From Trueperaceae bacterium (GTDB lineage: Bacteria > Deinococcota > Deinococci > Deinococcales > Trueperaceae): a stretch of 64,000 bases of DNA. The notes under the pieces were generated by a model that searched no databases, was not told the origin of the DNA, and saw only the letters and a list, made by a program, of their open reading frames with translations. The position numbers and the translations under genes are program-made. The DNA lies in NCBI GenBank assembly GCA_034521815.1, contig JAXHLW010000011.1, positions 1 through 64,000 on the forward strand, written 5' to 3'. This document shows, in pieces, positions 3,316-63,277 of this stretch (its first letter is position 1; the number at the start of each line of letters is the position of its first letter).

Positions 3316-5041
3316 CAGAACAGGAACCAACGCTGGGCGAGAGGGAGCTCGGTGGCGGCAGGACTGGTCACCAGCTGGCCGTCGACGGTCACGCGGTACG
3401 TGTCGGGATCGACCTCGATGTCGGGTCGAGCGTCGTTGTGCACCATGTGCTCCTTGCGGACGCCGCGCGTTCCCCGGACCGCGAAGGCGCGACGTGCGAG
3501 GTTGCCCGGCAGACCGCCTTCGGCGAGCGACACGCCCGAGACGAAGTGAACGCAGGTGGAATCGGGGACGCGACCGTACGCTCCGAACATCGGCCTGTAC
3601 ACGACCGGGCTCGGCGTCGGAATCGAGCCGTTCGGATCGCCCATCACCGAAGCCACGGTGAAGCCGCCCTTGAGCACGAGGTCCGGCTTGGCACCGAACG
3701 AGGCGGGGCTCACAAGCACAGGTCGGCCAGCTTGCCGACCTCGACCGATCCGACGTGCTCGGAGATCCCGTGTGCGATCGCCGGATTGATCCCGATCTTG
3801 GCGACGTACCGCTTTGCCCGGACGTTGTCGCTGCGGGCGCTGTCGCCGGGAAGCGCGCCGCGTGCGCGTTTCATCGCGTGCGCCGTTTGCCACGTCCGAA
3901 GCACGACCTCGCCGACACGCCCCATCGCCTGCGAGTCGGAGCCCACCATGCTGATCGCCCCGATATCGGTGCAGAGCGTCTTCGGCGGCCACTGGTCCTC
4001 GGGCCGAATCCGCGACTCGGCGAACGCGACGTCCTCCGGGACGCGCGGACTGAGGTGATGACAGACCATCAGCATGTCGAGGTGCTCTTCGAGCGTGTTG
4101 ACGGTATACGGCATCGTCGGGTTGGTCGACGACGGCAGCACGTTGCCCTCTGCGACGACCCGCAGAATGTCCGGGGCGTGCCCGCCGCCAGCGCCTTCGG
4201 AGTGGTAGGTATGAATCGTCCGATCGCGAAACGCGGCGATGGTCGCCTGGACGAAGCCGGACTCGTTCAGAGTATCGGTGTGAATCGCGACCTGGACGTC
4301 GAAACGTTCTGCGACGGAGAGAGCCGTATCGATGGATGACGGCGTGGTACCCCAGTCCTCGTGGAGCTTGAGCCCTGACGCGCCAGCCCGAATCTGCGCC
4401 TCGAGCTCCTCGGGTCGCGACGCGTTGCCCTTGCCGAGGAACCCGAAGTTCAGCGGCATGCCCTCTGCCGCTTCCATCATCCGATGCAGGTTCCATGCAC
4501 CCGGGGTGGCCGTGGTCGCCTTGCTGCCTTCGACCGGGCCGGTCCCGCCGCCGATCATCGTGGTCACGCCGCTCGTCAGCGCCTCCCAGGCCTGCTGCGG
4601 GCTGACGAGAAGTGGATGTGGGCGTCGATCGCGCCGGCCGTCAAGATCTTCCCCTCGCGGGCAAGAATCTCGGTGCCGGGACCGATGGCGAGCTCGGGGT
4701 GCACGCCGTCCATGACGTCCGGGTTGCCGGCCTTGCCGATCGCCGCGATTCGGCCGTCACGAATCCCGACGTCCGCCTTCACGACGCCCCAATGGTCGAG
4801 GATCACCACGTTGGTGATCACCAGGTCGGGCGTCCCGTCCTCGCGCGCCCGCTGGCTCTGGCCCTGCCCGTCGCGAACGACCTTGCCGCCACCGAAGACG
4901 ACCTCGTCGCCGTAGATCGCGCCCCCTTCGTTCGCGGCGTCCCGTTCGAATCTCGACGATCAGGTCGGTATCGCCGAGGCGGACGCGGTCGCCGACGGTC
5001 GGGCCGAACAGCTCGGCGTCGGCGCGCTTGTCGATCCTCAC
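3315..5041 (-). CDS. ureC: Urease subunit alpha (frameshifted)
   Basis: [82 protein letters not shown]. Confidence 0.96.
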
Positions 5042-54434: not shown

Positions 54435-57400
54435 TCATGCCACCTTCAGGGGAAGCGGTACGCGTCTCGCGAGGAGCCACGCGAAGTCCTCCTCGCTGAG
54501 GGGGACGCTGAAATAGTACCCCTGACCCATCGAGCAGCCCAGCGCGAGAAGCGCGTCGCGCTGTTCTGGACGCTCGATCCCTTCGGCGATCACCGTGGCG
54601 CCGATGGACGAGGCGATCTTCAGGACGGACGCGGCGATGTCGCGGCTGTACGGGTCGTCCGGCAGGCCGTGCACGAACGCGCGATCGATCTTGATGTCGT
54701 CGAACGGATAGTCCTTGAGGTACGCCAGCGACGAGTAGCCGGTGCCGAAGTCGTCGAGAGACAGCTTCACGCCCAGCGCGTGAAGCGCGTCGAGCTGGTC
54801 GCGTAGACGGGCCCGTTCGTCGGCGAAGACGCTTTCGGTGAGCTCGAGCGTGAGGCTGCTGGGCGGCACGCGGTGGCGCGCCAGGATCTCTTCGACGTCC
54901 ATCAGGAACTCGCGGTCGGCCAGCTGCTCGACACTGACGTTCACGGCGATCTGGACGATGTCCAGACCGTCGTCCTGCCATGCACGAAGCGTCTTGCAGG
55001 CGCGATCGAGGACCCAGCGTCCGATCGGCACGATCAGATGGCTCGTCTCCGCGACGGGGATGAACGCTCCGGGCGAGAGGAATCCCCGAGCTGGATGGTT
55101 CCAGCGGATCAGGGCCTCGCCCGCGACGAGGCGACCGCTGGCCAGCTGGACCTTGGGCTGGAAGTGGAGCTCGAACTCGTCGTTCTTGAGCGCTTCGCGA
55201 AGCTCGTTGGCGAGCTCGACGCGACCTCGTGCCGCCCGGTCCAGATCGGACGTGTAGGCCTGACCGTTCGTAGGCGACCCGAAGCGACTGGCGTGCAGGG
55301 CCACCTCGGCTTCGCGTAGCAGCCCACCTGGAGGCCGAGGCTCGGCCCCGAGGCGGGTGTAGCCGTAGTGGGCGCTGACGTCGAGCTCGAACCCGTCGAT
55401 CACGAACGGCTCGTCGAACGAGCCGTCCCGGTTTCCGAACAGCTCGACGCTCAGCGACGCCTCAGGTGCGAGGTCCGGGAGGAGCACGGCGAACGCGTCG
55501 CCGCCGGTCCGCGCGACCAGCCCGTCCGGACCGGCCGTGGCCGCCAGCCGATCACCGATCGCCCTCAGCAGGGCGTCGCCGATCGCGAAGCCTTGGGATT
55601 CGTTCACGTTGCGCAGCTCGACGAGGTCCAGCGCGACCAGGACGGCTCGCTCGGGCCACGGGACGCTGGTCCAGGTAGCTGGTCAGCTCGCGAGCGAGCC
55701 CGTCGCGCGTCAGGTAGCCCGTGAGAGGATCCTCGAACGCGATTCGTTCCAGAGCCGCTTCGGCACGCTTGGCTTCGGTGACGTCGATGTGCATGACGAC
55801 CGCGCCCTCGAGCTCGGCATCGGTCCGAAGCGGCGTGGCCGCCAGACGGAACCACCGCTCCTCGCTGGGCGAATGGCACGGGTACTCGTACACGAACGAC
55901 GACCGCTGGTCCGCGAGGACGGCGCGCAGCCCGGCCGCCACCTGAGCGCCAGAGCCTGCGTCCTTGCCGCGGGCCGCGTCGCATACCTGCAGGTAGCTGA
56001 CGCCGACCTGATCGTCGTCGGCATCGTTGTCATCCGCGAACGTCCGCCAGCGGTCGTTCACGCTGGTGATCACACCCGACGCGTCCAGGACAGCGATGTT
56101 GGCGGGAAGCGAGTCGATGAGAGCCTTCCTGGTCGTGAGCTCATTGGCGAGGTGGGCCTCCTGGCTCCGCAGCCGCTCCACCATGTCCCGGCGTACGGTC
56201 ACGTCCCGCAGCCCGACGGCGAGGCCCTCCCCGGTCGGATCCACCCAGATCTCGAGCCAGCGGCCGGTCGTCGGATCGAAATCGTCGAAACGTGTCGAGA
56301 CGCCGTCGTCCATGGCGCGCCTGATCTCGTCGCCGATACGGCTTTTCATCACGCCCGGCAACACGTCGTCGAGCAGCCTGCCGGCGACGGCCGTGTCGTG
56401 CCAGAGCTCGGCGATGCGGATCGCCGCGCTGTTGGCGAAGGTGATCCGCAAGGCGTCGTCGATGAGGACGAAGCCGTCGTTGAGCCGCTCCAGCGTGGCG
56501 CGCAGGCGGTGGTCGAGCTGGTGCGCCCGAAGCTCCGCCCGCTTGCGGGCGTCGACGTCCTGGAACGCTCCCTGCACGCCGGTGATCCGGCCGGAGGCGT
56601 CGCGCACCGGCTCGCCCGTCGTTCGGACCCAGATCCGCCGGCCGGTCGCGGTGACGATCTGCAGCTCTTCGTCGTACGGCACGCCGTCGCGCACGGCGCG
56701 CTCGTACGCGGCCCGAATCCGGTCGCGATGCTCGGGCGCGTAGAACACGATCGCTTCAGCGACCGTCGGCCGCGTGCCGAGCGGCACCTCGTGAATCTCG
56801 CAGACCCGGTCCGACCAGGTCAGCGCCTGCGTCCGGGCGTCCACGTGCCACCCGCCGAAACGTGCGATGCGGCTCGCGATCTCCATGACGCGGCGCTGCT
56901 CGTCCAGCGCCGCCTGGGCCTCGACACGCTCCGTGACGTCCTGGATGACCCCCGCGACGTACATCGGGCGGCCTTCCTCGTCACGCTCGACGTCACCACC
57001 GATGTGGACGTGACGATCCTCGCCCTGCCCGGACCGCATCCGGAACGTGTCGTACGTCGGCCCTCGTCCGCCTGTCACGGTGGCATGCAGCGCCTGATAT
57101 CGATCCGCGTCGTCGGGATGGATCATCTCCCGAACCTGGTCCACCGTGGGCGGCGCGGCGTCGGGAGCGAGGCCCAGAATCCGGAGCACCTCGGCAGACA
57201 CCTCGAGCTGGCCCGAGTCGACCGTTCGGCGCCACGAGCCGATGCGGCCGATCCGCTGCGACTCGAGCAGCATCGCGGCGTGCCCCTGGAGCTCCTGCTG
57301 CCGGTCGTGCAGCTCCTGTTCGGCCGCGTCGCGCCGATCGAGCATCGCGTTCAGGGCGGCGCCCAGCCGCGCCATCTCGTCGCGGCCCAGCACGTTCGCC

Positions 57401-58071
57401 CTGGCGGAGGCGTCGCCGAGGCCCACCCGGTCCATCACGCGGACCAGCTGCGCCGTGGGTCGCCCGAGGCGCCGATACAGGAACCACGACGCCGCCAGGC
57501 TCAGGAACGCGAACAGCACCGCGAAGCCTCCGAGCGCACGCGATACCCTCGCTACGGTCGCGTCGGCCTCGAGGTGCCGTTCACGGACCAGCTCGGCCAC
57601 GACGTTCTCGATCGTCACGCCGAACGCGGCCATGCGCGTCAATGTGGCGGCCGCCGGCTCCGTCACGCCGAGCACGCCTTGCGTCGGACCGAGGAGCGTG
57701 GAACCATTCGCGCGAGGACGATCGAACGCGTCGGCGGCCAGCTCCGCCATCTCGTCGAGGGCCGCGACCGCTCGCTGGGCCGCAGGCAACGCGTCCTCCA
57801 TCTCGGTCAGCTCGGACCGGACCCGCCTGAGCCGGGTCAGGAACGCCGGCAACGACGCCTCGTCGACGGCGTCGACCAGGAGCGCGTCGGCGGCCACCGA
57901 AAGCTCCGCGACGCGCACCTGCAACCCCGTGAGCGTCTCGACCTGAGCTATGTGGTCGCGCGACTGCTGCGACGCCCAGAGGGCGAGCACGATCAGCGCG
58001 ACGCAGCCGACGAAGCTCAGAGCCGTCACGATCCGGGCGACCGCGACCATGCTGACGGGACGGGCGTTCAC
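54435..58071 (-). CDS. TM-HAMP-multi-PAS-GGDEF(degenerate)-EAL protein, likely c-di-GMP phosphodiesterase (frameshift near 55660)
   Basis: Two TMs, HAMP (RDEMARL..ALNAML), about 4 PAS domains, GGDAF, then EAL, VNVS, ELTES, DDFGTGYSSL, KID, EGIE, QGY. Confidence 0.92.
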
Positions 58072-58453
58072 GCGGATCCCGTCACGGGCGTCGTCGTCGA
58101 CGTCGTCGTCGGCTTCGTCACGGCCCGCTGGTCCGGTGTCCTGGCCTGCCCGGCGACGCTCACCCCGCCCGTGACGCGTCCGATGACGCGTCGCACGGTG
58201 GCGCGGGTGAACGCTGACTCGTTGCCATGGTGGACGGACGATATGTCATTCGATGGCACGGAGTCCTTACAAGCGACGCATCTGCTCACGACGCCAGCCT
58301 CCGTCCGCTTCAGGTGGTCCGGTCCACCGCACAGTGCTTTGGCACGTGCTCCACGATTGCGCATCCCCCGCCCGACACGAGCAACGTAGCAACCCGCGGC
58401 ACCGCCGGGCGTGGACATGACCACATCGCGACGCCGCCCACGCCGGCATGCGA

Positions 58454-58486
58454 GCACCCCTGCGGGTGTCGTCGCCGCAGGGGTGC
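58454..58486 (-). terminator. 12-bp hairpin downstream of the riboswitch-associated lipoprotein gene
   Basis: gcacccctgcgg-N9-ccgcaggggtgc. Confidence 0.65.
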
Positions 58487-58581
58487 CCATCGCCTCGCTC
58501 AGGCCGCTCGCTCAGGCCGCGCGCTCATGCATCGAGCGCCCACACGTGTGCAGCACGTACGGACGTTCGACGCGCCGAGGA

Positions 58582-59319
58582 TCAGCCGCCCAGCTTGATC
58601 GTGCTTCCCTTCGACGTCAGCGTGAAGTCGACCGTGTAGCCCCCGATGGTCGTCTCCGACTCGATTTCGATCGCGACGCGGAAGGTGCCACGGTTGGGCG
58701 TCTCGGTGTCGCGAAGCATGAGGATCGACACGAGGCGTTCCAGGTCGTCACGATCGGTCAGCTCCACGTCCAAGACGTCCTCCAGCGGGGCCGATCCGAC
58801 GTACGCGTAGGTGCACGCGAATGCACCGCACGTTTCCAGCTCGAACGGCAGGTCCAGATCGACGTCCGTCGTGAACGACACGTCGCCGTTCACGTCGTCC
58901 TGCAACGTGCCTTCCACCACGGCGCGCGTGACGGTGAACCCAGCCGGGGAGTCGGTGGCCAAGGTGCCGGTCGGGACGCTCAGCGTCACCGATTCCTGGA
59001 GCCCGGCGTTGGTGTGGAAACCGGCGAGACTGAAGCCGCGCAGGTTCTCGTCCAAGTCGGGAACGTCGAAGCTGCGGGTCACGTCGAGATGGCTGGTGCT
59101 CTGCGCCGAGAGCCCGCCATCGTCCAGCGTGGCGGTGACCGCCTGGCCGTCGACGCCCAGCGGATCGCCGACCTCCAACGGTGGCACGAACGCGGCCACC
59201 AGGCCGCAGGCGCTGAGCAGCGTCGCAGCGGCGGTGATGCCGATCGCGACCGCGAGCCTTCGCGGACGGTGTTCACGGGTCGTGGATCGTGGTGCGGGTC
59301 GTAGTGTCGAACGGATCAT
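58582..59319 (-). CDS. Uncharacterised acidic beta-rich lipoprotein (245 aa) downstream of a c-di-GMP-II riboswitch
   Basis: GAGGAGG SD, Arg-rich n-region, LLSAC-G lipobox; no recognisable family. Confidence 0.8.
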   Translation of the reverse strand: MIRSTLRPAPRSTTREHRPRRLAVAIGITAAATLLSACGLVAAFVPPLEVGDPLGVDGQAVTATLDDGGLSAQSTSHLDVTRSFDVPDLDENLRGFSLAGFHTNAGLQESVTLSVPTGTLATDSPAGFTVTRAVVEGTLQDDVNGDVSFTTDVDLDLPFELETCGAFACTYAYVGSAPLEDVLDVELTDRDDLERLVSILMLRDTETPNRGTFRVAIEIESETTIGGYTVDFTLTSKGSTIKLGG

Positions 59320-59322
59320 GGT

Positions 59323-59359
59323 GCCTCCTCGGTGGGATGGACATCTCCACCGAGGAGGC
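59323..59359 (-). promoter_or_regulatory. SD-sequestering hairpin (candidate riboswitch expression platform)
   Basis: mRNA GCCUCCUCGGUGG-N11-CCACCGAGGAGGC-accAUG: perfect 13-bp stem whose 3' arm contains the SD. Confidence 0.8.
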
Positions 59360-59399
59360 CCGTCGCTGGCCGTATCGGCTCGGAACGGGTTCTCTCCTG

Positions 59400-59473
59400 C
59401 GATGGCCGGTTGCGCTACTGGCTCCGCCTGCTCCAAGCGCCCAAGTACGGAACAGGCTTCATCGCCGCCATCG
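59400..59473 (-). ncRNA. c-di-GMP-II riboswitch aptamer
   Basis: CGAUGG C GGC GAUGAA GCCUGUUCC GUACUUGGGCGCUU GGAGCAGGC GGA GCC AGU AGCGC AACCGG CCAUCG: P1, P2, kink-turn GA motifs, P3, pseudoknot GCGCU/AGCGC, AACC junction. Confidence 0.88.
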
Positions 59474-59960
59474 AACGACGTCCTGTGAAGCTACGCGGCC
59501 GTGCTGCTACGCAGCGCAGGGACGCGTCCACGCTACGCGCAGGGATCGCACGGGCTTCTTACATCGGCGCGTGGCCGGCATCGACGCGCTCCCCGTAGTC
59601 GCCGGGGCGCACGACGCTGGCTTCGAACAGGCGCCTGACATGATCGATCATGACGCGCGATCCGGGTTGGCGTCGGCGCCGACGACGAGCTGCAATGTGG
59701 TGACGTCCTTCATGGACGGTCCTGTCCATCGTCGCGCGAATCGAGCAAAAACTCAGCTTTTCCGGGTCGCTCGGCTTCCGGGTCGAGGGCGGTCACCTGC
59801 CGGTCTTCGCGAACCGACGACGGCAGCCTCCGAATCGAGTGCCGTTCGCCCCCCTGGAGCGACGTCGAAAGTGTGCCACGTCACGCTCACGTGACTCTTC
59901 GTGGTCGAGCCGGCCGACGAGGACGTGCCACGCGTCGGTCGTTGCCGCGAGTGGTCTTCG

Positions 59961-61090
59961 CTACTCCCCGCGCGGGCCTGTCGCGCCGTCAGGCATGCGG
60001 TCAGGCACGCCGTCGGCCACGACCTGGTTCCGACCACGGTCCTTCGCCGCGTACACGGACAGGTCGCCAGGCGAATCCGGCTGATCGCCGACTCGGTCGG
60101 GCGCAGCTCGGCCACGCCGAAGCTGGCGGTCACGCTCTCCTTGCCGGGGAGACGCAGGTCGAGCTCTGCGATCGCCTGGCGGCAGACGCTCCGCCGTTCA
60201 GGGTCCGCGTCCGCCGGGGACATCCCTCCTCCCGGGAGGACGACGACGAACTCCTCCCCGCCCCAACGGGCCACGGTGTCGTGGCCACGCACCGTCCGCT
60301 GCGCGACGTTCGCGATCGCCTTCAGGACGCGATCGCCGACGCTCGTGACCGTAGCGGTCGTTGACCTGCTTGAAGCGGTCGAGATCGAACCACGCCACCG
60401 ACATGGGGTGCTCGTAGCGGCGAGCGCGCTCGACCTCCTGCTGCAGCCGCTCCTCGGCGCCCCTCCGGTTCATCAGGTCCGTCAGCGCGTCGCTGGTCGC
60501 CAGCGACGCCATCGTCGAGGCCCGTTCCCGCTCCGCGCTCGTGACGCGTACGATTCCGCCGATCAGCACCAACACGCTCGCTTGCACCAGCACCACCTCG
60601 ATCAACGTCGTCTGGGTGCCGAGCGTCGAGAATCCGTCGATCGCGAGCAGGGCGACGGAGGCGACGACGAGCGCCGCCCAGGCACCCCACGCCACGAGCC
60701 CTGCCGCGCGTGCCGACAGCGCCAGATGCGCGAAGCCCGCGATGGCCGCGGTCCACATCGCGATTCGGACCGCGCCGTCGACGTCGCCTTCGCCTTGGCC
60801 CAGGCTCGCCGCCACGACCGCGGCCAGCGCCACCACGAAGGCGACGACGGCGGCCGCGACCAGCGATCGCTCGAACGCCCGGGGCACGCTTCGACGCACC
60901 GCCATGACGCCCGCGGACGCCGAAGGAGCACCACGCCGACGATCACCGCGACCAGCCAGTTCGCGGTGGACCGGGAGTCGTCGAACGACCCCGCGATTCC
61001 CACCAGGAGCGCCGCGACGCCCCCGACCGGTAGGACCACGAGGTAGATGCTCCGTTTGAGGACCGCAGTGCGAGACGGTTGCGACGGCAT
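59961..61090 (-). CDS. Membrane-bound diguanylate cyclase (several frameshifts)
   Basis: N-terminal TMs; DALTDLMNRR, FKQVNDRYGH, RGHD I-site, GGEEF, VTASFGVAE, AAKDRGRNQ. Confidence 0.85.
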
Positions 61091-61180
61091 GACGCGCCAA
61101 AGGTAGCACGGGCGCTCCTCGCGCGAAGGGGCGTCACGCTGGGGTGGCGCCTGCTGCCGCCGTCCTGTCTTCTGTGACGC

Positions 61181-61274: not shown

Positions 61275-61913
61275 GTGCGCCACGTCCTCATCTGCGACGC
61301 CGAACCGATGTTCCGCTACGGACTCGCCCACCAGCTGGCGCGCCGTGGCTGGACGGCGAGCGTCGCCGAGGCCGGCACGGTGGCCGAGGGGATCGCGTCC
61401 GCCCGCGAAGCTCCGCCTGCCGTGATCGTGGCTGACGCGGTTCTGCCCGATGGCCCCATCGACGATCTGCTGGCGGACCCGTCCGTGCGCAGCGCTGGGC
61501 CCCGTGTGATCGTGGTTCCGTCCGACGCGGACAGCGCCCCGCCCCGCGGCGAGCCGGTTCACGCCGTCCTTCCACGCCACACCGGCGTCGAGCGGCTCAT
61601 CCGCGCCATGGGACCGGAACAGGAGGACGGACCTTGCCTGCCCGAACGCCAGCGACAGGTCCTGGCCCTCGTCTGCCGCGGCTGGTCGAACCGTTCGATC
61701 GCCGAGGAGCTGGGCATCCGCGAGAAGTCCGTTCGCAACTGTCTCACGCGGGCCTTCCGCAGCCTCTCCGTCCAGAACCGCACGCAGGCAGCGATGCACG
61801 TCCTGAACAGCGGCCTTCGGCCCGTCGCACCCCCCGCCGCGTCACCCGCCGCGCCACCTTCGGGCGGCGATGGCCGCACGCATCACGCACGGCCCATCCG
61901 CTCGATCCGGTAG
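61275..61913 (+). CDS. LuxR/NarL-family regulator with atypical receiver domain
   Basis: AAGGAG RBS; REC-like N-terminus; LPERQRQVL..GWSNRSIAEELGIREKSVRN..LSVQNRTQAA HTH. Confidence 0.88.
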   Translation: MRHVLICDAEPMFRYGLAHQLARRGWTASVAEAGTVAEGIASAREAPPAVIVADAVLPDGPIDDLLADPSVRSAGPRVIVVPSDADSAPPRGEPVHAVLPRHTGVERLIRAMGPEQEDGPCLPERQRQVLALVCRGWSNRSIAEELGIREKSVRNCLTRAFRSLSVQNRTQAAMHVLNSGLRPVAPPAASPAAPPSGGDGRTHHARPIRSIR

Positions 61914-63084
61914 TCGACGCAGGCTTCGCCTCGCCGGTCGGCGCGTGCGTCCTCAGCGCAACGACGACGTCGACGAAGGCGTCGATCAGCTCCGGATCGA
62001 ACTGCTCGCCCGCTTGCGCCACGAGCTCGGCGACGGTCTCGTCGTGCGTCCAGGCTCCCTTGTACGGTCGTTCGCTGGTGAGCGCGTCGTAGACGTCGAC
62101 GAGGCTGAACATGCGCGCCAGCAGCGGAATCTCGGAGCCGGCTAGCCGGTCGGGGTAGCCGTGGCCGTCCCAGCGCTCATGGTGACTACGGACCACCTCC
62201 CTGGTACCGGGCGAGAGGAACGGAATGTCGCGGCACATCTCGATCCCGATGACGGTGTGCCGGCGGATGTGCTCGAACTCGTCGTCCGTGAGCCGGCCCG
62301 GCTTCAGCAGGATCCCGTCGGGGATGGCGACCTTGCCGAGGTCGTGCAGGTACGCGCCCCAACGGAGCGCCTGCAACGTCGGCTCGTCCATCCCGAGCTT
62401 CTCGCCGAACGCGACCGCCAGCGCGACGACGCGGTCGGTGTGCCCCTTCGTCTCGTAGTCGCGGTACTCCAGGGCGACGCCCAGCGCCCGGAGGGTGGCT
62501 TCGTGCTGAGCTCGCTCCCGCTCGAGCAGGTCGAGATTGCGCACGGCGATGGCGGCCAGCGTCGCCGTCATCATCAGGCCCGGCGTGTGCTGGTCGCGAA
62601 AGGCCGCGAGCTCGGGGCTCTGCACCTCGATCGCGCCGAAGACGCGTCCTTCGAGGCCGAACGGCACGGTCAGGCTGGAGCGTGGCGGGTTCTCTTCGAA
62701 ATCGCTGCCGGTGTCGACGCGCGGCAGGCCTGCCGTGGCGACGGCCAGGTCGGGCGTGTTCACCACCTCGCCGCTGCGAATGGCGCGGCTCTGCGGACCC
62801 TGGTTGAGCGGGAGGTCGGGGAACTTGGTGAGATCGACGTTCTCCTCCAAGATCAGGTCGCCAGCGGCGTCGACCACGATGTCGGCCGAGTAGACGCAGC
62901 GGCGCATGCCGGTACCGGGTAGGTAGAGGACGACGAAGATCCCCGTGGCGGGCGAGGTACGAGCAGCGAAGCGCGTCAGGGCGCGGAACACCTCGCGCAT
63001 CGAGCGCGCAGCGGCGATTCCCTGCGCGACCGTCGCGACCGGCTCCAGGTCGTTGCTCGGGAGGGGGATGGGCTCGTAGTCCAT
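61744..63084 (-). CDS. GAF + HD-GYP c-di-GMP phosphodiesterase (3' end uncertain, overlaps the LuxR gene)
   Basis: ETKGHTDRV, LHDLGK, LKPGRL, HHERWDGHGYP, DVYDALTSERPYK. Confidence 0.93.
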   Translation of the reverse strand: MDYEPIPLPSNDLEPVATVAQGIAAARSMREVFRALTRFAARTSPATGIFVVLYLPGTGMRRCVYSADIVVDAAGDLILEENVDLTKFPDLPLNQGPQSRAIRSGEVVNTPDLAVATAGLPRVDTGSDFEENPPRSSLTVPFGLEGRVFGAIEVQSPELAAFRDQHTPGLMMTATLAAIAVRNLDLLERERAQHEATLRALGVALEYRDYETKGHTDRVVALAVAFGEKLGMDEPTLQALRWGAYLHDLGKVAIPDGILLKPGRLTDDEFEHIRRHTVIGIEMCRDIPFLSPGTREVVRSHHERWDGHGYPDRLAGSEIPLLARMFSLVDVYDALTSERPYKGAWTHDETVAELVAQAGEQFDPELIDAFVDVVVALRTHAPTGEAKPASTTGSSGWAVRDACGHRRPKVARRVTRRGVRRAEGRCSGRASLPACGSGRRGCGRPA

Positions 63085-63277
63085 GTCGATTCTCGTAGTG
63101 TCCCACGCTCGGCCCACGCGAGGTTCGGCATCTGCGGGGATCGCCACCGTGCCTTGCAGCGCCGACCCGAAGCACCCGCGCATCGCGCGCCGGTAGCTTG
63201 TGCGACACGGGTGGTACGCTCACCGCCAACGAACCACGAACCACGAACGCAGCGCATTCGACCACCGGGGGTTGAAC

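Follow-up and report, generated by a model that had tools for sequence, protein, structure and literature searches.

A conserved class-II c-di-GMP riboswitch in the leader of a predicted lipoprotein gene of Trueperaceae and its proposed translational OFF logic

Whether a short RNA element in front of a lipoprotein gene of no named family senses cyclic di-GMP (c-di-GMP), and in which direction such an element would switch its gene, is the question raised by a locus of Trueperaceae bacterium (Deinococcota; assembly GCA_034521815.1). The window, by which the whole analysed stretch of 64,000 nucleotides (nt) is meant, comprises positions 1 to 64,000 of contig JAXHLW010000011.1, which is contig 11 of the 13 contigs of a 2.63 Mb metagenome-assembled genome (MAG) with an estimated completeness of 83.5% and a G+C content of about 70%; DNA of the stretch was found in runs from salt-pan, sediment and lake metagenomes. 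The locus consists of a leader of 162 nt and a gene for 245 amino acids, both on the minus strand, as are all features of the window described below unless stated otherwise. When the whole window was compared with Rfam 15 using cmscan, two matches were obtained at the gathering threshold, one of which is the c-di-GMP-II family (RF01786) and resides in this leader.

The RF01786 match extends from 59395 to 59478 and reaches 77.4 bits, the gathering score being 53.5 (E 9.1e-16), whereby model positions 1 to 84 of 84 are covered with no truncation. The class-II layout that a first-pass annotation, made from the letters of the window, had read from 59473 to 59400 lies inside this match, P1, P2, P3 and the pseudoknot are all present, and the comparison with the covariance model, proposed there as a check, bears the reading out. 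In the cmscan alignment the P1 core is CGAUGG/CCAUCG, P2 is GGC/GCC and the P3 region is formed by GCCUGUUC/GGAGCAGGC, while the kink-turn letters GAUGAA and GGAG and the AACC junction GCAACCGG agree with the consensus at sequence level. Within the pseudoknot the Rfam consensus reads GCACU and GUGC, whereas the window possesses GCGCU and GCGC, hence an A-U pair is replaced by a G-C pair through a compensated double change, as had been claimed earlier for this segment. Elsewhere the conserved positions of the consensus are all matched, and their posterior probabilities are maximal. With the reference family the element shares the full-length layout and the location in the 5' leader of a gene for a probable envelope protein, from which the G-C instead of the A-U pair in the pseudoknot is the difference.

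The aptamer is linked to one gene family. The downstream gene starts with ATG at 59319 and ends with the stop codon at 58584 to 58582, and its orthologues were collected by back-translated searches, which yielded 108 pattern matches in species genomes, nine of them confirmed, and 160 in metagenome contigs, six of them confirmed. In all 15 orthologous loci (9/9 from species genomes and 6/6 from metagenomes) an RF01786 element lies directly upstream on the same strand; 14 of these matches exceed the gathering score (64.0 to 79.2 bits) and one, which is cut by the end of its contig, scores 46.7 bits. The encoded proteins are 52 to 74% identical to that of the window. As several of the loci are close kin (L054/L055 and L044/L045/L056), the 15 do not count as independent. 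An inspection of homologues for upstream riboswitches, likewise suggested in the first-pass annotation, thereby separated two groups, since no element was found at E <= 0.1 before the distant homologues (30 to 46% identity, the paralogue of the same genome included; 0/8 loci). In two genomes of the same genus, distant homologues of this riboswitch-less kind adjoin a tRNA gene (L006:2328-2399 and L007:1363-1434) and a gene for an EAL-domain protein, a different and syntenic context. Given that the pairing of riboswitch and gene is kept in 15 of 15 loci, it is very probable, as judged from sequence conservation, that the gene encodes an envelope protein under c-di-GMP control.

The conservation extends to the pairing itself, which was counted in an alignment of the 15 orthologous leaders and compared with controls in which the partners were slid by one to three columns. 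For the aptamer and the downstream hairpin that holds the Shine-Dalgarno sequence (SD) taken together, 84.3% of the cells were paired, as compared to 34-48% in the slid controls. The P1 core, P2 and the pseudoknot pair in 15/15 leaders and never vary, the latter with its five pairs (GCGCU/AGCGC) 100% paired and invariant, and the G-C form is common to all 15 orthologues and to both other RF01786 copies of the genome. P3 was found to be 94.2% paired, and three of its pairs are changed on both sides, which constitutes covariation. Of the P1 helix in the Rfam model, the five outermost pairs are poorly kept here, forming in 5, 13, 0, 8 and 0 of the 15 leaders. Taken together, these data make it highly probable that a genuine class-II c-di-GMP riboswitch controls the lipoprotein gene.

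How the aptamer would act on this gene has to be sought in the 75 nt that separate it from the ATG, which hold a variable spacer hairpin followed by a perfect hairpin of 13 base pairs (bp). The 3' strand of P1 together with the next six nucleotides (CCAUCG-C-AGGAG; 59394 to 59405) resembles the SD arm of that hairpin (CCACCG-AGGAG) and is proposed to serve as an anti-sequestrator carrying a pseudo-SD. It can pair over 11 bp with the anti-SD strand GCCUCCUCGGUGG (CUCCU-CGGUGG; 59347 to 59359), of which the segment CCUCGGUGG is nearly invariant across the 15 leaders, and the helix so formed (H2) encloses the predicted spacer hairpin (59360 to 59389), which most orthologous leaders possess with differing sequence and which is shortened or absent in L047 and L051. 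The same anti-SD strand can pair with the SD strand (59323 to 59335) to give the 13-bp hairpin (H3; duplex -31.1 kcal/mol), which is present in the minimum free energy structure (MFE) of the window leader and which holds the SD GAGGAGG (59324 to 59330, 4 nt upstream of the start codon) in its 3' arm. This arrangement, in which the riboswitch precedes a gene of the same strand within its 5' leader and an SD hairpin separates the two, is kept in 15/15 orthologous loci; in full-length folds at least six of eight SD positions are paired in 14/15 leaders, and 92.7% of the H2 cells are paired across the alignment. P1, H2 and H3 are thus conserved pairing potentials of the leader. The CAGGAG segment that follows P1 hardly varies, whereas its partners in the Rfam P1 (columns 1-5) do so and mostly fail to pair; as these partners pair in only 0 to 13 of the 15 leaders, P1 cannot explain this conservation, whereas pairing with CUCCU can.

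Based on this, a reaction scheme with three mutually exclusive helices is suggested, in which H1 is the aptamer P1, H2 joins the P1 3' strand and the pseudo-SD to the anti-SD, and H3 joins the anti-SD to the SD. The leader would head a monocistronic gene whose product, an acidic jelly-roll protein, would be exported and anchored by lipid, and control would occur at translation initiation. In the ligand-free state, H2 would form on the nascent RNA before the SD has been made, the SD would consequently stay free and the ribosome could load (ON). When c-di-GMP is bound, P1 would be locked, the anti-SD would be set free and H3 would close over the SD (OFF). Stepwise folding of the window leader is consistent with this order of events, as H2 displaces P1 in the MFE at transcript lengths of 132-140 nt, when the anti-SD has been made and the SD has not yet, and as from 144 nt onward the MFE consists of P1 together with the SD hairpin. 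A nascent H2 of 10-11 bp forms in 12/15 orthologues. The OFF logic follows from the location of the anti-SD outside the aptamer, where the P1 3' strand is its only competitor from the aptamer, and control is most likely translational, since no terminator-like site, hence no intrinsic terminator that could serve as expression platform, was found by the terminator scan. H3 being much stronger than H2, the decision must be kinetic, so that the ON state would be a kinetic trap, decided during transcription. Under the proposed polarity the protein would most likely be made at low c-di-GMP, which fits poorly with the biofilm effector induced by the signal that the first-pass annotation had imagined.

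A number of observations weigh against this scheme. Among the H2 pairs seven never vary and two vary on one side, none being compensatory, and three of the 15 nascent folds lack H2. Compared with shuffled strands, the H2 duplex energy is only modestly distinguished, with a fraction <= 0.05 in 9/15 leaders and values of up to 0.58. Energetically, H3 (-31.1 kcal/mol) exceeds H2 (-17.9 kcal/mol), and the OFF fold is better by 14.5 kcal/mol (-77.3 vs -62.8), hence it wins at equilibrium regardless of ligand; these ViennaRNA folds model neither the pseudoknot nor the ligand. The clostridial class-II switches that have been studied are mostly ON switches. At the level of transcription, a sigma-70 scan identified 0 promoter-like sites in 58300-59800, and contigs assembled from RNA libraries neither prove transcription nor show transcript ends. 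With these points considered, an OFF polarity acting on translation is still favoured, somewhat above an even chance, by the folding models, and the explanation as a whole, namely a class-II riboswitch that shuts off translation of an exported lipoprotein through three helices, is held to be moderately probable.

The alternative that survives best turns the polarity around and assumes that c-di-GMP raises expression of the lipoprotein by a rearrangement lying outside the three helices. The characterised class-II riboswitches that precede adhesin and pilus genes in clostridia are ON switches, and a second riboswitch of the same genome makes both polarities plausible here. This second copy (C13:602324-602408, plus strand, corresponding to L002:1501-1585; 73.9 bits) resides directly before a gene for an immunoglobulin-like (Ig-like) lipoprotein (MMRRLAPLLLLFALLAACS...), and in its ligand-free MFE the SD and the start codon form a duplex (-21.1 kcal/mol) with the P1 5' strand, which, as far as the folding model goes, would be an ON-type design, opposite to that of the window leader. 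In the latter none of the aptamer strands is so complementary to the SD strand that the SD would be released on closure of P1, and an ON switch is hence regarded as unlikely at this locus.

Slightly less likely still is that the aptamer is genuine while the SD hairpin acts constitutively, as a damper of translation or as an element of RNA stability, with regulation taking place elsewhere, for example by Rho-dependent termination or by RNase access within the 75-nt spacer. The strength of H3, which should form at equilibrium with or without ligand, the lack of an intrinsic terminator and the lack of covariation in H2 would all agree with such a role. It leaves unexplained, however, why a near-invariant pseudo-SD stands beside P1 and matches the anti-SD in 15 leaders, and the sequence of the spacer is not conserved.

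That the aptamer is a specificity variant for a related nucleotide is considered very improbable. Such a switch is conceivable as the G-C pair in the pseudoknot replaces the consensus A-U pair and as class-I relatives are known to have switched ligand to cyclic GMP-AMP (cGAMP). The change is, however, a compensated helix pair by which no conserved unpaired position is lost, the other consensus positions match, the same G-C form recurs in the 15 orthologues and the two further copies of the genome, and genes for diguanylate cyclase (DGC) as well as for phosphodiesterase (PDE) are abundant in the surroundings. A chance match or a decayed relic without function is effectively refuted by the E value of 9e-16 and by the retention of the element in 15/15 orthologous loci with covariation in P3, nothing having been found in its favour.

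A weak hint that leader and gene reside on one RNA comes from a metatranscriptome run (X13), contigs of which, derived from a relative of 90-95% similarity, cover 58944-59302 and 59347-59466, whereby one contig of 440 nt joins the 3' part of the aptamer to the coding region. This cover amounts to 14/30 bins, and since the runs consist of assembled contigs, neither a transcription start site nor the strand nor an expression level can be read from them. The hexamer TAGCTT, which had been annotated as a -10 box, is indeed present at 59488-59493, but finds no support in the sigma-70 scan and is not conserved in the orthologous leaders. In eight of these (L044, L046, L048-L050 and L056-L058) a TAnnnT box (TACACT, TACAGT or TACCCT) was seen about 20-60 nt upstream of the aptamer. 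Between the orthologous box and the aptamer, directly ahead of the latter, stands a small hairpin (CGAAGCC-ACGG-CGCUUCG), the shared box and hairpin being placed at about 36-40 nt upstream; the window is devoid of this combination and has three copies of GCGTAGC instead.

The gene under control (58582 to 59319; P0001) encodes a protein with a basic N-terminus (MIRS...RPRR) followed by a hydrophobic stretch LAVAIGITAAATLLSAC and the lipobox LLSAC, judged by sequence features to form a signal peptide, and the lipobox cysteine Cys38 is invariant in 30/30 aligned family members. The mature protein is acidic (pI 4.05; 35 Asp plus Glu against 10 Lys plus Arg). An AlphaFold2 model based on a 30-sequence alignment (mean predicted local distance difference test score (pLDDT) 81.6, predicted TM-score (pTM) 0.71) showed a beta-sandwich of the jelly-roll type over residues ~45-245, in which the conserved Cys164 and Cys169 are placed at the ends of two neighbouring strands (E145-164 and E168-173); conservation was also seen for the motifs DPLGVDG and TPN.G. 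These results uphold the earlier description of an intact, acidic and beta-rich lipoprotein of 245 residues and no recognisable family, since at the curated cut-off Pfam and NCBIfam assigned 0 families to P0001.

Wider searches extended the family and left it unnamed. At E <= 1e-3 there were 47 homologues of near-equal length, all 'hypothetical' or unnamed and none with a Pfam domain, and a profile search of 1.84 billion representatives gave 107 proteins at the same cut-off, almost all of 200-270 amino acids. A Pfam scan of 52 members of the wider family returned no credible family, the only matches being two single-member ones at E ~0.005; a profile search of Protein Data Bank (PDB) sequences with the family had its best match at E 0.42; and the neighbours in the ESM Atlas were only unnamed 'hypothetical protein' clusters in Deinococcota. 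All public relatives with a taxon name are from MAGs of Trueperaceae, two records, both from one 'uncultured bacterium' MAG, being without taxon, so that the family appears, as far as found, to be confined to Trueperaceae. On the structural side, Foldseek against the PDB gave only capsid jelly rolls of the picornavirus type (TM ~0.2), while a wide fold search independent of Foldseek (VIA) ranked an iridovirus capsid protein first (Z 7.0), followed by birnavirus VP2 (Z 6.7), carbohydrate-binding modules (CBMs; Z 6.1 and 5.2) and the N-domain of PNGase F (Z 5.9), no chain reaching Z 8; as the typical best Z of the background is 7-8, these values lie within it. With CBMs, the PNGase F N-domain and viral capsids the modelled fold can be aligned over residues ~45-245 at Z 5-7, but no sequence relationship was found in these comparisons, no function is transferable and no family or function was assigned by fold. 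The protein is therefore described as a predicted jelly-roll protein that would be exported and anchored by lipid and whose family is undescribed; a glycan- or matrix-binding role for it would be only an analogy.

Behind the stop codon the first-pass annotation had placed a hairpin, and in fact two very stable hairpins were identified at 58451-58579 (58524-58579 and 58451-58489; fold -90.1 kcal/mol, z -3.42), which are without a U tract, the terminator scan having found no 3' hairpin with a T run after the lipoprotein gene; as a pair they are a possible transcript end. About 510 nt (58072-58581) without a Rfam match lie between the lipoprotein stop and the start of the next gene, and a direct repeat of 13 nt, GCGGCCTGAGCGA, was read by eye twice at ~58495-58522. 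An open reading frame (ORF) at 58068-58490 (140 amino acids) was considered and set aside as probably non-coding, being Arg/Gly-rich, of no family, with a start inside a hairpin and with a weak tblastn match (44% over 50 amino acids in L054 and L055) as its only one.

Genes for c-di-GMP enzymes flank the locus on either side. Downstream, a HAMP-PAS(x4)-GGDEF(GGDAF)-EAL gene (54435 to 58071) was identified by Pfam with EAL and DDFG motifs; upstream, a GGDEF gene with the motif GGEEF (59753 to 61109), the Pfam domain of which is split over two ORFs, lies nearer to the locus than a gene for a GAF and HD-GYP phosphodiesterase (61744 to 63183; Pfam HD_5 5e-37 and GAF_2, motifs HDLGK and HHERWDGHGYP). 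The catalytic motifs GGEEF, EAL/DDFG and HHE...GYP are hence present, and in the assembly a frameshift affects two of these three genes, both GGDEF-containing genes changing frame inside the GGDEF domain, in the HAMP-PAS gene near 55600. Contigs of three DNA runs from three studies lack one base at 60342, two of them differing by further 1-base indels at 60064-60082, and the L053 orthologue of the upstream GGDEF gene is in one frame, on which grounds the frame breaks are probably assembly errors or strain-specific lesions. The c-di-GMP enzyme cluster described earlier therefore exists in the window, with HD-GYP, GGDEF and GGDEF-EAL genes as flanks, but in a scan of the larger flanking ORFs a DGC/PDE neighbourhood was seen in only 6/15 orthologous loci, namely GGDEF genes near the lipoprotein locus in L053, L056, L047 and L051 and a downstream HAMP-PAS gene in L054 and L055. 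The flanks of L046, L048, L049, L050 and L058 encode an aldo-keto reductase, an aldehyde dehydrogenase, a solute-binding protein, a nitrilase-type hydrolase, a short-chain dehydrogenase/reductase (SDR), an aldolase and similar proteins. The neighbourhood was consequently rejected as a conserved part of the module; conservation holds for the riboswitch together with the lipoprotein gene and does not include the cluster of c-di-GMP enzymes. The remaining Rfam match of the window, 5_ureB_sRNA at 4592-4880 on the plus strand (44.9 bits, cut-off 40), has a high bias (16.7) and many non-canonical pairs and most likely reflects conserved urease coding sequence, not a small RNA.

Within the order, an RF01786 copy over threshold is present in 27/41 genomes searched, the own genome included, and the control Deinococcus radiodurans also matches. 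Class-II riboswitches are described as 'typical' of clostridia and deinococcus in PMC9495176, in line with the earlier statement that the class occurs in Deinococcota; hence, with the class known in this phylum and common in the order, neither riboswitch class nor phylum is new. A third copy of the genome (C13:1441852-1441938, plus strand, corresponding to L003:1501-1587) stays below threshold (34.4 vs 53.5 bits), keeps GCGAUGA, UGGGCGCUUG and AGUAGCGCAACC and precedes a gene with an RRFL motif resembling that of twin-arginine translocation (Tat) substrates and a lipobox. For 30 other RF01786 loci of the order (L015-L043), a crude script, applied to the first ORF of at least 80 amino acids behind an SD, detected a lipobox in 9/30, whereas inspection by eye gave about 19/30 N-termini with a lipobox or a Sec-type signal peptide, an approximate figure as several ORFs were mis-called. 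With some 19 of 30 N-termini of the exported type, control of exported proteins looks like the rule in the order. Several order genomes possess tandem class-II riboswitches, among them doublets and one contig with a cluster of four (for example G020:C1:2004630-2004905, G019:C4:514894-515149, G003:C1:141059-141312, G008:C39:25654-25886, G030:C1:142566-142803 and G011:C38:6517-12280).

Class II was reportedly first described by Lee et al. in 2010, and the class-II switches of Clostridioides difficile turn their genes ON, in contrast to the OFF logic predicted here. As a mechanistic analogue the TPP (thiamine pyrophosphate) riboswitch of the thiM type may be considered, a translational OFF switch in which, by way of three mutually exclusive helices, the SD becomes occluded once P1 closes. 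From this the present leader differs in aptamer and ligand, in the fusion of the pseudo-SD to the P1 3' strand and in a far more stable sequestrator, the latter implying kinetic control. The family Trueperaceae as host and the regulated gene family are, to our knowledge, without prior description in this context. In C. difficile, class-II elements before pilus and adhesin genes likewise control genes for cell-surface proteins, and act, according to PMC9481103, by transcription termination or group I ribozyme splicing, whereas here neither was identified and an SD-sequestering hairpin takes their place. The same source (Sherlock et al. 2022) catalogues tandem c-di-GMP-II arrangements, doublets and triplets mostly from Paraclostridium, which share the aptamer class with the present locus, where a single aptamer with one platform is found. 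A literature search, to which supplements did not belong (that of PMC9481103 may list class-II loci of Deinococcota), returned no paper on c-di-GMP riboswitch outputs or riboswitch-regulated genes in Deinococcota.

While knowledge of the riboswitch class itself is unchanged, what is new lies in the detail: a lipoprotein family without Pfam or solved-structure relative, its linkage to the riboswitch in 15/15 loci and the conserved three-helix leader. Being preceded by the riboswitch in all 15 orthologous loci, the protein is a clean candidate for a c-di-GMP riboswitch output of the Deinococcota; the compact, conserved leader of 162 nt gives the falsifiable prediction of an OFF switch that uses a pseudo-SD as decoy; and for comparison a copy of contrasting, ON-type design is available in the same genome. 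Going further, it may tentatively be speculated, as a possibility of rather low probability, that Trueperaceae swap surface lipoproteins with changing c-di-GMP via class-II riboswitches whose polarities are opposite. In that case the jelly-roll protein, as a dedicated output of low c-di-GMP, would be translated solely at falling signal, by means of a kinetically trapped pseudo-SD decoy, and might serve the non-biofilm state as an envelope factor that binds glycans or matrix, with the Ig-like lipoprotein at C13:602324 being turned on at rising signal. If this holds true, the jelly-roll protein would be the first functional handle on the outputs of c-di-GMP signalling in Deinococcota.

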